Below are positions 335 to 9,158 of a DNA stretch of 64,000 nucleotides, piece by piece. The notes beneath the pieces were generated by a model. That model did no database searches, was not told the DNA's origin, and saw only the letters and a program-made list of their open reading frames with translations. Positions within the stretch are counted from its first letter, which is position 1. Every line of letters begins with the position of its first letter. Source of the DNA: a virus (taxonomy: Duplodnaviria > Caudoviricetes); the IMG/VR virus record IMGVR_UViG_3300013947_000019, positions 128,001-192,000 of that record; one strand, given 5' to 3'. Made by a program: the position numbers and the translations under genes.

Positions 335-763
335 TTAATTTTTAATTCGCCCCAATTGTACTTGACGTGTATATGCACCACAGCAATGCTTAGAACAAAA
401 TGGACCCATAATATGTTTGTTTTTCTTATCTTTTCGATTACTGTTTCGTCTTGCTTCTGATTGTTGTTTTTGTGTCCAAATAAATGTACATCCGCACCAT
501 GGGCATTTCATAAATTTATTCTTATATTTTGAATTCTCTATAGCATGTTGTTTAAGATGATATTTTTTAAGTATAACTTCTAAATTATCCGGATCATTAT
601 TATCTGGATTATGGTCTTTATGGTGAACATCTTCATCTAATTTGAGTTTACGACCAAGTTTTTCTTCCATAATAATTCTCGGATATGATCTTGTTGTATA
701 TGTACCATCAGGTTTGCGACAAGAAACTATCAATCGCCCATAATTATTTCGATATGTTTTCAT
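335..763 (-). CDS. HNH endonuclease with C-terminal Cys-rich zinc finger (free-standing, homing-type)
   Basis: VHHKDHNPDNNDPDNLEV HNH motif; CPWC...FCSKHC; lies between tRNA genes. Confidence 0.8.
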   Translation of the reverse strand: MKTYRNNYGRLIVSCRKPDGTYTTRSYPRIIMEEKLGRKLKLDEDVHHKDHNPDNNDPDNLEVILKKYHLKQHAIENSKYKNKFMKCPWCGCTFIWTQKQQSEARRNSNRKDKKNKHIMGPFCSKHCCGAYTRQVQLGRIKN

Positions 764-1563: not shown

Positions 1564-3429
1564 TCAGATGTAATTCTGAATGAAACCTTCCAAGTGTACA
1601 GTACGAGCAGTGGCCAATTCATAAACTAGTGTGCTATTCTCAATCATAGTGGTGATAATAGATACTGGTTCAATGATTTGATTGTTAAATCGCGTTGTGA
1701 CTTCTTCGCCATTCGCTGCAGTATACTTACCAAACTCTTCATAATGTGAATCTACACCATTGATTTCATCAGCCGCAAAGATATCATTCAGATCCGTAAT
1801 ACCTTTCAGATTAAAATTCTTAATAGAAAATTCAGAATCCGAAATATGAACATTTGCGATATATTCAGTGACCATATTGTGAAGATCAACTATATCTACA
1901 TCAAAAGGACCATTATGAATCATATCAACTAAAGTATCAATAAATGAGTATTCAAAGATTGTACCTATGATCTGATTCTTATAATTATTCTCATGACGAG
2001 CTTTCTCTACATATTCATGAGAAATCAATGCAGCAAGTGCAAGAGAGTTACAATTAAGTACACCCTTCTCTACAGCTTCGGATGCAGACAACACTGCATC
2101 CAGAATCAATTCATATTTACGTTGAGAATCCTTCATTAACTTAGAGCCAATCTCAACTTCAATAAACTGGCCATAAGAAGTACGAAGACGTTTATTAAGT
2201 TCTAGTTTCTTGACTTCAGATTTTTCTTCATCCTGTTCTTTGCGCAGTTCATCATAACGAGCCTGTGCAACAGGACCAAGTTTCTTATGAATACGAATAC
2301 CCTTTACTTCATCAATATCAACTTGATATGAATCAGTAAACATCTCTTGAATCTTAGCCAGATGCCGTACATCACAATCAAATGTACAAAGTTCTGGGAT
2401 CATATCCTTATTAGATGCAATAGCTTGCCAGATAAGAGTTTCAAAGGTCAGCTGATTAACTAAACCACCAATACCTTTTTCATCAGTAATAATTGTACTA
2501 ATATCCTCCATAACCTCAGAGCTATAGGTTCGATAATCATCTAATGTAAAGATAGCTAAATTATTATAATCCTTGAAAAACTCTTCTACAGGAGTATTCC
2601 CTCGCATACTATTCAATTCAGCAATCAGAGATTTAAGAGTTCGTCTAGAAGCCTCACTGAGGCCATTACAGAGCACAATAATTGTCTTCGGATAAAATTT
2701 GCCGTTTGTATCCTGAGCTACATATCCCATCATAGCACGAATAACTTCTTCGTGTGCAATATCCAAAACACCATTACAGTGAAAAATTACACATTCTTTT
2801 TCCTCTGCTTTCATGGGACGAATAGAGAACTGTTTTGTAGCTTTAAAGAGCGGACTATTATGTACTGTCATGTTGAAATCTGTTGCAAGATTAGATTTAG
2901 CAATGGTGATATATGCACCATTCATCATCGCATCAGCCAGATTATATTCAATAGTAGCAGCCCAATCCGGATCTTGTACACATGTATAGAGCATTTGATG
3001 TAGATACTCACGTGTCATAGGAGCCTTATATGATTCAATAGCTTTGATAATATCATGAATGGTATTTTCCCAATCACGACGAGTAACAGTGCTGCAAGTA
3101 CGAGGAATCATCCCACGGATATTCTTATACATATTGGTATACAGAACACCAAGAGAAGTAGTACCATCTCCCACTTTATTGCCCTGCTGCTGAACTGCCT
3201 GATAAAGAATCTTCAGTACATACATAGAAAGCTCATTATCGAAACGAGTTAAACGCAGAGTTTCTTTACCATCTCGAGTATAGTAGGGAAGTCCATTCTG
3301 TGTCAGATAAGCATCTTTCGCATAGGGACCAAAAACAGTGACGATATCATCATGTAATTCTTTCATGGTTTTATCCATGATATCATAAAGATAATCGCCA
3401 CGAATCGCATTAGACTGGATGTTGATCAT
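1564..3429 (-). CDS. Phage GroEL/Cpn60-like chaperonin
   Basis: N-terminal TVFGP, KVGDGTTS ATP-binding motif, C-terminal IIEP; start moved to MINIQ at 3429, downstream of a GAGGA SD. Confidence 0.75.
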   Translation of the reverse strand: MINIQSNAIRGDYLYDIMDKTMKELHDDIVTVFGPYAKDAYLTQNGLPYYTRDGKETLRLTRFDNELSMYVLKILYQAVQQQGNKVGDGTTSLGVLYTNMYKNIRGMIPRTCSTVTRRDWENTIHDIIKAIESYKAPMTREYLHQMLYTCVQDPDWAATIEYNLADAMMNGAYITIAKSNLATDFNMTVHNSPLFKATKQFSIRPMKAEEKECVIFHCNGVLDIAHEEVIRAMMGYVAQDTNGKFYPKTIIVLCNGLSEASRRTLKSLIAELNSMRGNTPVEEFFKDYNNLAIFTLDDYRTYSSEVMEDISTIITDEKGIGGLVNQLTFETLIWQAIASNKDMIPELCTFDCDVRHLAKIQEMFTDSYQVDIDEVKGIRIHKKLGPVAQARYDELRKEQDEEKSEVKKLELNKRLRTSYGQFIEVEIGSKLMKDSQRKYELILDAVLSASEAVEKGVLNCNSLALAALISHEYVEKARHENNYKNQIIGTIFEYSFIDTLVDMIHNGPFDVDIVDLHNMVTEYIANVHISDSEFSIKNFNLKGITDLNDIFAADEINGVDSHYEEFGKYTAANGEEVTTRFNNQIIEPVSIITTMIENSTLVYELATARTVHLEGFIQNYI

Positions 3430-6478: not shown

Positions 6479-7468
6479 TTAAATTCGAACAATGTTCGTA
6501 TAATAAGTCATTGTTGCTCCATTATGAGTTGTTTTTCCAGGACTCATCCCAAGAGGTTTGAAAATTTGCCCAAACAGTTTCATATTATCAGATACCAGAG
6601 TTTCTACATCGATAATAGATAACAACCATTCTGGAACTTCTTCTAACTCACTTGGCATAGCAATTGCTTTGATACCCTTACCCTTCTTAACTTTACCAGT
6701 TGCAGGATCAATGGTATCTCCTACTTCATCATTCTCATCAAATAACTTACAAATCTTCTTATAAATATCTGGCCATCTTTCTAATGGAGCTGCATCTTGT
6801 TTATTTCTTAACTGTACTTTGACCAAAGTAACAGTTGCTGGTAAATCAATTCGTTCTTTATCCGGCATTACATAATTCCAAATAAAGACTGCTTTATACT
6901 GACCAATTCGCATTGGATCTGCATATCCATCAGGAGTCTTTACTCGAATAGATCTCTTCAGATATCCAGTATTACCAGAACGAATTTCATTACCCATTTG
7001 TCTCTGGAAATCATTAATTGTCTTATACGTTCTTCTCAAAGATATCTTTTCATCGGGAGGATCAAGTAATTCACCCATCAATACTTTATCGTAGATAAAC
7101 TTACTTGTATCTTCAGACGCTGTACTCTTAAAGAAGTTAACACCTTTCACATCGATCTTTGGTTCTTTAAAGACAACCTCTTCCTGTCGTTTCTGAAGCC
7201 CAACATAGGACTTCTTGGCAAACGTAACCATAACTCGAGAATAATAAAACTCATTCTTCATATTAATATGCTGTCTATCTTCTTCAGCAATATTTGCAGT
7301 TCCACAATAAAACCACAAACGCTCCATAATTGCTTTTGTACTGAAGTTCGACAATACGTTTAATACACGAAGTTTATACGCTTCTCGATCTGATTTCTTT
7401 CTGAAAAGTTTTCCTTGAAGAACATTTTCGATCAGATATTTATAAAGTGAACCATAATGAAGAAAGTT
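6479..7468 (-). CDS. DNA polymerase family B, polymerase subunit, exon 3
   Basis: Open frame from AAC at 7468 (NFLHYGSL...) continues into ORF 6479..7354; KKSYVG and IDVKGV motifs. Confidence 0.85.
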   Translation of the reverse strand, partial: NFLHYGSLYKYLIENVLQGKLFRKKSDREAYKLRVLNVLSNFSTKAIMERLWFYCGTANIAEEDRQHINMKNEFYYSRVMVTFAKKSYVGLQKRQEEVVFKEPKIDVKGVNFFKSTASEDTSKFIYDKVLMGELLDPPDEKISLRRTYKTINDFQRQMGNEIRSGNTGYLKRSIRVKTPDGYADPMRIGQYKAVFIWNYVMPDKERIDLPATVTLVKVQLRNKQDAAPLERWPDIYKKICKLFDENDEVGDTIDPATGKVKKGKGIKAIAMPSELEEVPEWLLSIIDVETLVSDNMKLFGQIFKPLGMSPGKTTHNGATMTYYTNIVRI

Positions 7469-7851
7469 CCTTGTTTTCAGATAGGGTCGTTATTCCTATC
7501 CCGTTCATAATGAACCGCTTACGGATTTCCCGTAAGAGAAGACTATATCATTCAACCACGCATTGGTGTGGTATATATTCTGCGCTTTGAGCTCACTTAA
7601 GCCCTCACTTACTCACGCTACCCATTACCATGCTAATGGACGCTTTCAATTAGTCGTTGAACCTTCATCCGTTCTGGATGCTTGGCTGCGGGTTAACCAA
7701 TCCTTATCTCTTTTACGATACATCTGGTCTTTCTCCAGATCCATAATCTACATTCCTGTGATTACTTCGTGTATAAGGCTCTAAGGTATAACTTATCATA
7801 AGTTACTTACGTTCCCGTCAATTCACAGAATTTAGAGATTCCCACTTCTTA
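7469..7851 (-). mobile_element. Group I intron 2 of the DNA polymerase gene (383 nt, no ORF)
   Basis: 5' splice site after U with P1 AGATTCT/GGAATCT (U.G pair); P7 elements GTTCAACGACTA and GATATAGTCT; terminal G before AAC. Confidence 0.85.
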
Positions 7852-7860
7852 AGAATCTGT
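7852..7860 (-). CDS. DNA polymerase 9-nt micro-exon 2 (ACA GAT TCT = T-D-S)
   Basis: Restores catalytic motif C IVID-TDS-NFL in frame between exons 1 and 3. Confidence 0.85.
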
Positions 7861-8153
7861 CCTATAGTACCCCTAGTTTCCTAGTATTTAAAAGGGAGTG
7901 GACTATACAATCTCATATGAGTCGGTATTATAGTCTCTGAACGTCTACCACCGGCACTACCCGCTGAGGTATTTCGATGCGTCTGAGTGACTTGCACACT
8001 CGGTTACCCCTGACTTGATTGTTTTTATGGTTTCTGATCTTTTAAAGATATACCGCATTCACGCTTACCGTTTCCGGTTACGTTGTAGCCTATCAAGGTT
8101 ATGGGGGCTTTCCCGCAATTTAACCGATTTTACATCGACTAGATTTCAAGTTA
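7861..8153 (-). mobile_element. Group I intron 1 of the DNA polymerase gene (293 nt, no ORF)
   Basis: 5' splice site after U of GAT with P1 ATCGAT/GTCGAT; P7 elements TTCAGAGACTA and GTATAGTCC; terminal G. Confidence 0.85.
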
Positions 8154-9158
8154 ATCGATAACAATGGTACATTTTCTTTTCTGATATCGAGTTCTATCTT
8201 CATATCGGAAGATACCATGTTTATAAGCTACAAATTCCAAAACCCAATCTGTTAACTTATCAATCATCGGTTTAATCTCTTCCGGCATAATATTTGGATC
8301 GATAAACTCTACATCAGCACATGCTATATCAGAATATAAATAAGCAGGTTTCTTCAAAGATAAAAACTCTCTGATATTTGCTTTATAATATACTCTGATT
8401 CGCATCTCATCACTTAAACTATCATATACCTGACCAATCTCTTCTGGATTACACAATGATTCATGACCAAACTTCTTCGTATATCGATCTATGAACTGTT
8501 GTCGACTTGGACTAATCCCCACAACATCCCATACATCATATTTCCAATCCGGTTCTTCATGAATGATATTATATACCCAGTTATAGAATTCAGTCATATG
8601 GAAGAATAATACATTATCTTCCAATAGATTTTCAAAACATTGACAAGCTGTACTGATCTGTCCACGACCACAGGATGTAACACTCATTGCTGAATGAATG
8701 TTATATAAAAAAGAAGAAGACTGACCTTCTGCACCATATCCTGAGTTTGCGGCCTTTTTATCGTTTGCTTGCTGAAGATCCTTAACCGCTGCTAAGAATT
8801 CATCACCAGCCTGCATTGCTTTAAACTTTTCTTTCTTATGAATCTTACGAATATCAAGCATATCATCCTTGATAATTTCGACATTCACATTACGCTTTTG
8901 CGACTTTGGATAAAAATAAACACCCGACTCAGCAATCAATGGTTTAGAATTCCTAAACCAATCCACTAAACTTAATAGTGTTGCTGATGCCAAAGTGTTT
9001 TCATAATTATTAAAAATCTTTACCTCTGTATCCTTTACGCGTTTTGCATATATCTGTGCAACCATCTCTTCTATCTTACTCTTCTCTACCTCTGGATGAG
9101 TTGCACACATTGCCATTGTCATACGAGAGATCCATTCGTGCTTCATTATCTCTTTCAT
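8154..9158 (-). CDS. DNA polymerase family B, polymerase subunit, exon 1
   Basis: Motif B QQANDKKAANSGYG; ends IVID immediately before intron 1. Confidence 0.85.

Follow-up and report, generated by a model that had tools for sequence, protein, structure and literature searches.

The 64,000-nucleotide stretch of DNA analysed here (the window) corresponds to bases 128001-192000 of a 259,863-bp record that is complete per CheckV, the host element being a gut jumbo phage of ~260 kb with an AR9/PBS1-type polymerase. On the minus strand of the window, two open reading frames related to DNA polymerases (exons 1 and 3; Table 1) are separated by an insert of 685 nt. Profile searches with exon 1 returned matches to PF20286 (divDNApol; 1.9e-14, profile positions 33-200), PF00136 (5.5e-10) and phrog_2927 (6.8e-29), whilst those with exon 3 returned PF20286 (3.2e-28, profile positions 418-690) and phrog_2927 (3.3e-39). 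In tblastn searches, both exons had their nearest named relatives, 24-30% identical, among polymerase catalytic subunits, namely those of AR9 and PBS1, two phages of Bacillus, and those of Staphylococcus jumbo phages, with the match of exon 3 to the AR9/PBS1 polymerase beginning at query residue 1. On these similarities, the split gene is predicted to encode the catalytic subunit of a divergent family B DNA polymerase (PF20286, AR9/phiKZ type).

The DTDS of motif C is complete in the window only once a micro-exon of nine nucleotides, lying between two introns, is included. Joining exon 1 through this micro-exon to exon 3, which by direct reading opens as AAC TTT CTT CAT TAT GGT at 7468, generated IVIDTDSNFLHYG and a stop-free frame of 335 + 3 + 329 = 667 aa. 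The original prediction had described two introns of 293 and 383 nt, a 9-nt exon encoding the TDS of motif C and a reconstituted 667-aa frame reading IVID-TDS-NFLHYG; direct reading reproduced both introns at every coordinate, joining the exons restored the frame, and the identity of the micro-exon was borne out by the homologues described below.

Table 1. Coordinates in the window of the exons, introns and predicted intron pairings of the split polymerase gene
Feature	Position	Strand	Remarks
Exon 1	8154..9158	minus	335 aa, C-terminal end KRKCTIVID; last codons ATC GAT, then in-frame TAA
Intron 1	7861..8153	minus	293 nt, putative ORF-less group I intron; first codon in-frame UAA; terminal G 7861
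Intron 1 P10 strand AAUCU	8145-8141	minus	
Intron 1 P1 guide GUCGAU	8139-8134	minus	pairs with AUCGAU of exon 1 end; closing U8154.G8139
Intron 1 P3	8127-8123 / 7926-7922	minus	
Intron 1 P4	8117-8112 / 8003-8002 + 7981-7978	minus	hairpin 8001-7985 inserted in 3' strand
Intron 1 P5	8107-8104 / 8010-8007	minus	branched P5 extension including GAAA loop
Intron 1 P7	7937-7929 / 7907-7900	minus	GACUAUA/UAUAGUC
Intron 1 P8	7921-7912	minus	
Intron 1 P9/P9a	7896-7870	minus	
Micro-exon ACAGATTCT = ACAGAUUCU	7852..7860	minus	Thr-Asp-Ser of motif C; another TAA directly after
Intron 2	7469..7851	minus	383 nt, putative ORF-less group I intron; first codon in-frame UAA; terminal G 7469
Intron 2 P10 strand AAGAAG	7850-7845	minus	can pair with UUUCUU 7465-7460 of exon 3
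Intron 2 P1 guide GGAAUCU	7842-7836	minus	pairs with AGAUUCU 7858-7852; closing U7852.G7842
Intron 2 P3	7831-7824 / 7584-7577	minus	
Intron 2 P4	7820-7814 / 7692-7687	minus	
Intron 2 P6/P6a	7685-7662	minus	
Intron 2 P7	7657-7651 / 7545-7540	minus	GACUA/UAGUC
Intron 2 P7.1/7.2 region	7649-7585	minus	65-nt insert between P7 and P3'
Intron 2 P8	7572-7555	minus	
Intron 2 P9, P9.1, P9.2	7536-7518, 7515-7503, 7501-7479	minus	
Exon 3	6479..7468	minus	329 aa, coding 7468-6482, stop codon 6481-6479; N-terminal NFLHYG

The exon 1 and exon 3 tblastn matches in AR9, PBS1 and Staphylococcus phage SA1 lay exactly 9 nt (three residues) apart, and the polymerases of these phages carry VDTDSNF (protein strings VLVVDTDSNFLML and LTVDTDSNFVHL). 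DTDS was found at motif C in all 84 full-length homologues retrieved, comprising those of AR9 and SA1 and a further 82 from a protein search (653-716 aa, 41-77% identical to exon 3), in which no full-length protein exceeded 77% identity.

Seven closer relatives (L004, L005 and L009-L013) were obtained from scans of IMG/VR and of metagenome contigs, and were sorted by the spacing of their exon matches and by sequence. Two of these are intronless, with an exon-match gap of 9 nt, namely L005 (72% amino acid identity; ATTGAC ACAGACTCC AATTTC) and L012 (88%; ATCGAT ACCGACTCT AACTTC), and their codons run uninterrupted as GAY ACN GAY TCN AAY TTY. L004 and L013 carry intron 1 alone (gaps of 304 and 299 nt), with ACAGAYTCA directly adjoining exon 3. 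L010 carries an intron 1 that contains an ORF, without intron 2 (gap of 1076 nt), and L011, a 258-kb contig, carries intron 1 with the ORF of L010 together with intron 2 (gap of 1464 nt). The layout of L009 is that of the window, with both introns present and ORF-less (gap of 686 nt). L005 and L012 lack intron 1 to the base; intron 2 is likewise missing to the base in these two and in L004, L010 and L013, being present in L009 and L011. The existence of alleles without one or both introns indicates that each intron is a separate unit with base-exact splice sites. A single 685-nt intron, or a twintron, was also considered and ruled out, as L004, L010 and L013 harbour intron 1 alone with the TDS codons contiguous with exon 3. 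In the eleven remoter relatives (L014-L024, ~29% identity), the spacing fitted an intronless site wherever the contig included both exons.

Other introns were located at or near the same site in this polymerase family. Staphylococcus phage vB_StaM_PB50 (OR770614; L003 2609-2787) harbours a group I intron of ~180 nt exactly at the D|T site of intron 1, and Listeria phage LPJP1 (MZ422438; L028 ~1217-1691) harbours one of ~475 nt inserted 4 nt upstream (GTGGT|...|TGATACCGACTCA). In GenBank, the polymerase halves of both phages are annotated as two separate CDS and the introns are unannotated. The series of alleles at this site thus extends to six types, these being no intron, intron 1, intron 1 with an HNH ORF, the latter together with intron 2, both introns ORF-less, and the different intron 4 nt upstream; motif C is an intron hot spot in this AR9/PBS1-type polymerase family. 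Scanning of IMG/VR with the exact 27-nt ligated junction gave no match, that is, neither a spliced nor an identical intronless copy, and scans of the same resource with the micro-exon followed by the first bases of intron 2, and with a pattern for the P4'-P7 core of intron 2, also gave no match. Megablast of the gene against phage records returned two matches only, of 40-48 nt, both to pieces of the introns.

The fold of intron 1 was mapped by hand for P1, P3-P9 and P10, with P, R and S blocks of AAAUUGCGGGAAAG, GUUCAGAGACUAUA and UUGUAUAGUCC, each of the 73 pairs so listed being canonical in the window. Across a five-sequence alignment (A2), 97.2% of cells were paired; 17 of the 73 pairs had changed on both sides with none of these broken, located in P1, P3, P5a, P5b, P6, P7, P8 and the inserted hairpin, with all of these compensatory changes stemming from one outgroup, the nrdD homologue described below, and hence amounting to one independent comparison. 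As a control, sliding the partners by 1-3 columns reduced pairing to 33-39%, with 0-3 both-side changes. P9a was excluded from the pair count, since MAFFT offsets its 3' strand by one base between versions of the intron, and was judged by eye. Together with blastn matches to the intron regions of 180 phage records, this predicted architecture identifies intron 1 as a group I intron. The 5-bp hairpin in the 3' strand of P4 (7985-8001, minus strand) occupies an unusual place, and two of its pairs are compensatory in the nrdD homologue.

This homologue (L025; MT835556, positions 2487-2761) originates from a human faecal phage scaffold, is 68% identical to intron 1, and splits an nrdD-like anaerobic ribonucleotide reductase gene at the glycyl-radical motif, RTCG|YIGS. 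Its guide layout is that of intron 1 in the window, the P1 strand being immediately preceded on its 5' side by a P10 strand of 7 bp, which supports the assignment of P10 in intron 1 as a pairing of AAUCU (8145-8141) with AGAUU (7858-7854). The nrdD gene family also hosts the sunY/nrdD intron of phage T4. An ORF with HNH-like sequence lies just downstream of the L025 intron (3028-3306). In L010 and L011, an ORF is held within P8 of intron 1 itself (252 aa in L011) and encodes an HNH_3 domain (PF13392, 1.5e-12), the sole PDB sequence match of which was I-HmuI (1U3E, E 0.005).

For intron 2, the mapped P3, P4, P6, P7, P8, P9, P9.1 and P9.2 are all canonical, the R/S elements are GUUCAACGACUAA/GAUAUAGUCU, and the insert between P7 and P3' stands in the place of P7.1/P7.2, which assigns the intron the layout of subgroup IA. 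Similarity by blastn extended to intron regions in 131 phage records. A paralogue (L026) lies outside the window at 68456-69620 of the genome, minus strand, with blocks of ~80% identity, and retains P1, P3, P8 and P9.1 of intron 2 with different sequences, that is, through compensatory changes; it also contains a 261-aa HNH_3 ORF in P6, which extends through the 5' strand of P7. On this comparative evidence, intron 2 is likewise classified as a group I intron, of subgroup IA layout. For the gene that the paralogue splits, the ORFs on either side (368 and 243 aa) gave no Pfam match. A one-base shift in the splice sites of intron 2 (TC|...G|GAAC) would still yield S-N, and was rejected because the 5' site would then follow a C rather than the U of the U.G pair.

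The pairings also verified the U.G-closed P1, the P7 elements and the terminal G that had been proposed for each intron. Neither intron of the window contains an ORF of at least 60 aa on the strand of the gene, the longest being 38 aa, so that no HNH ORF is present, and the earlier statement that neither encodes an endonuclease holds.

A search with group I intron models, which had been put forward as a check, separated the two introns. The curated gathering threshold of RF00028 is 50 bits, and matches below it were collected in E-value mode. Intron 2 was recovered below threshold at 45 bits in an end-to-end alignment (E 5.1e-10 in a 1-kb search, 3.2e-11 in a genome search) and is thus supported by E-value, whereas intron 1, at 13.7 bits and E 1.2, is not. 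At the gathering threshold, Rfam identified two tRNAs in the window and no intron; the tRNA genes lie at 248-329 and 1192-1263 on the minus strand. The original prediction would have taken an absence of group I model hits as a refutation, which is an unsafe criterion, because at E <= 0.1 RF00028 also missed the homologous nrdD intron of L025 and the introns of PB50 and LPJP1. We read the sub-threshold scores as low sensitivity of RF00028 for these phage introns, not as counter-evidence. The source genome contains at least five group I introns in all. One further RF00028 match (L006; genome 109245-109659, minus strand, 47.7 bits) follows an ORF ending in RNA polymerase Rpb1 domain 2, and therefore splits a phage RNA polymerase beta-prime-like gene, and another (L008) lies at 208020-208346 on the plus strand (27.4 bits). 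A short HNH-like match was also observed in the window at 533-688, minus strand, within an open frame of 153 aa.

The guide sequences of both introns converge on the micro-exon. As had been proposed, P1 of intron 2 takes up seven of its nine bases (AGAUUCU/GGAAUCU), and five of these, AGAUU (7858-7854), are common to P10 of intron 1, which renders the two pairings mutually exclusive. Their duplex energies are -5.9 kcal/mol for intron 2 P1 and -1.4 kcal/mol for intron 1 P10, and from these values the micro-exon would be expected to be held by intron 2 P1 most of the time. Both pairings lie wholly within the micro-exon, such that neither intron requires the prior removal of the other. The first bases of exon 3 offer no match to the P10 guide of intron 1, hence nothing favours skipping of the micro-exon; skipping would keep the frame and lose a catalytic aspartate. 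As both introns begin with an in-frame UAA, ribosomes translating unspliced RNA would stop exactly at each 5' splice site. We infer splicing at both introns with retention of the nine nucleotides.

The locus is very probably the product of two unrelated mobile group I introns that inserted independently at the DTDS of motif C, which is the best-conserved part of the polymerase gene, with the layout a by-product of homing into conserved DNA. Intron 1 would have entered between the codons for D and T, and intron 2, 9 nt further downstream, between those for S and N. To set its splice sites, intron 1 would pair GUCGAU with the last bases of exon 1 (P1) and AAUCU with the micro-exon (P10), whilst intron 2 would pair GGAAUCU with the micro-exon (P1) and AAGAAG with the first bases of exon 3 (P10). 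Excision of both introns by the guanosine-initiated two-step reaction would then be required to give an mRNA encoding IVID-TDS-NFLHYG and an active 667-aa polymerase.

It had also been suggested that the order of splicing, or skipping of the exon, could regulate replication, with the introns competing for the micro-exon bases and so tuning the level of active polymerase. The mutual exclusion of the AGAUU pairings and their unequal energies are compatible with such a device, as is the length of the exon, the skipping of which is in frame, and precedents of exon skipping by phage group I introns are reported from Twort orf142 and phage SIOphi (PMC11878797). However, among sister phages that are 88-99% identical in protein sequence, some lack introns at this site, some have intron 1 alone and others have the pair, which argues against a conserved regulatory role and indicates that the introns behave as dispensable mobile elements. 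The containment of both pairings within the micro-exon also removes any obligatory order of splicing, the missing exon 3 match of the intron 1 P10 guide leaves skipping unfavoured, and any two group I introns situated so close together would inevitably have overlapping P10 and P1 pairings. We consider the regulatory proposal unlikely, and the suggestion of the original prediction was not upheld on this point.

Independent insertion of mobile introns is consistent with the variation seen around intron 2. Relative to L004, intron 1 of the window is 98-100% identical up to P7' and ~70% identical over its last 60 nt, and exon 3 is 82% identical in its first 50 nt, returning to 96-98% beyond ~150 nt. 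The last ~60 nt of intron 1 occur in two versions that have the same architecture and different stems (CUAG/CUAG versus UCGG/CCGA), one version being shared by the three alleles that possess intron 2, and the other by the three intron 1 alleles that lack it. The same division between alleles with and without intron 2 is seen, free of exceptions, at synonymous sites 3, 6, 9 and 12 of exon 3, with L011 reverting to the other haplotype from site 18 onwards. Such a pattern is what co-conversion tracts of differing length around intron 2 would leave; the linkage of the P9 version and the exon sites to intron 2 is drawn from six alleles, and could instead reflect adaptation of P10 or P9. Sites 6 and 9 of exon 3 also improve P10 of intron 2, and selection for this pairing may contribute to the pattern at the exon sites.

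The introns of the window are endonuclease-free, so that their present mobility is presumptive. Given that 9 nt separate intron 2 from an intron able to carry an endonuclease, hitchhiking on the endonuclease of intron 1 appears a reasonable route for its spread, and the ORF-less intron 2 probably travels with the HNH-bearing intron 1 or with a neighbouring patch of recombination. A different benefit could be envisaged if intron 2 served as a shield, splitting the 3'-exon target and thereby guarding the gene from an I-HmuI-like nicking enzyme encoded by intron 1 of competing phages. Enzymes of the I-HmuI type bind mainly 3'-exon DNA, and the HNH_3 endonuclease found in the L010 and L011 forms of intron 1 has I-HmuI as its nearest solved relative. 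An intron endonuclease is reported to mediate competition between jumbo phages (PMC11620839). L011, however, possesses both the endonuclease gene and intron 2, a combination that fits hitchhiking equally well, and a shielding role is improbable. Similarly doubtful is a composite account in which the 9-nt exon is contested by two selfish elements, with intron 2 co-converting with an HNH-bearing intron 1 and splitting its target, resulting in immunity to nicking, whilst the shared AGAUU favours the removal of intron 2 first and yields an occasional in-frame polymerase lacking TDS.

A comparison of the window with L009, the other allele in which both introns are ORF-less, revealed ~95 differences among 2001 coding bases, all of them synonymous, which points to strong purifying selection on the exons. 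A stretch of 745 nt, spanning the two introns with the micro-exon and extending 30 nt into either flank, was 98.4% identical between the two, and the introns are thus either constrained or recently shared. Although stop codons interrupt the ORF and Rfam returned no intron at the gathering threshold, a decaying pseudogene or a chimeric mis-assembly of the 685-nt insert is scarcely credible, given that the double-intron layout is common to three independent assemblies (the window record, L009 and L011), and so is not an assembly artefact, that the coding differences are all synonymous, and that each insert contains a complete ribozyme core and is bounded to the exact base.

Several known systems resemble the layout at this locus. 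Phage genes with several group I introns share with it ORF-less or HNH-bearing introns, short internal exons and an essential DNA-metabolism gene, and differ from it in the length of the internal exon, 9 nt here, and in its location within motif C of a divergent family B polymerase, where splicing is predicted. A small exon between two introns has been reported in phiNIT1 (PMC11878797), and blocks of sequence from both introns of the window recur in introns of Staphylococcus and Bacillus phages. Mini-exons of fewer than ~4 codons 'occur regularly' in mitochondrial genes (PMC10352661), and those of fungal mitochondria, cox1 for instance, similarly comprise a few conserved codons between self-splicing introns and were found by means of intronless homologues. 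Those introns, however, are organellar, belong to groups I and II and in many cases depend on maturases or host factors, whereas the introns of the window are found in a phage and are compact, at 293 and 383 nt.

Phages SPO1 (I-HmuI, 1U3E) and Bastille (I-BasI) likewise carry an intron for an HNH nicking endonuclease in a conserved polymerase motif, as L010 and L011 do here, but their polymerases belong to family A, their introns are single and at other sites, and intron 1 of the window is ORF-less. The Jug gut jumbo phages average ~18.5 group I introns per genome, with DNA polymerase genes often split (PMC12880540), and they, along with the intron endonuclease of PhiPA3 (PMC11620839), offer further examples of jumbo-phage polymerase genes invaded by group I introns. 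These phages belong to a different clade from the AR9/PBS1-type 260-kb phage, and neither this site nor a 9-nt exon is described in the two papers. PB50 and LPJP1, which have a polymerase of the same family, contain one intron each, with little sequence similarity to those of the window. The layout is a further case of the tiny exons between group I introns known from fungal mitochondria and phages, and implies no new mechanism; it is distinguished by its site, the T-D-S of motif C, and by an unusually complete series of alleles.

With standard gene callers, and with Rfam at the curated cut-off, this locus emerges as two polymerase fragments without an intron, whilst recognition of the 9-nt exon restores an intact polymerase. 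The six allele types constitute a compact natural series for the gain, loss and co-conversion of introns and endonucleases in uncultured jumbo phages. In this regard, L010 (OBLI01004671.1), which bears the HNH-encoding intron 1, and the intronless L012 (OBLI01009858.1, 88% protein identity) belong to the same ENA assembly set, such that donor and potential recipient alleles may co-occur in one sample.
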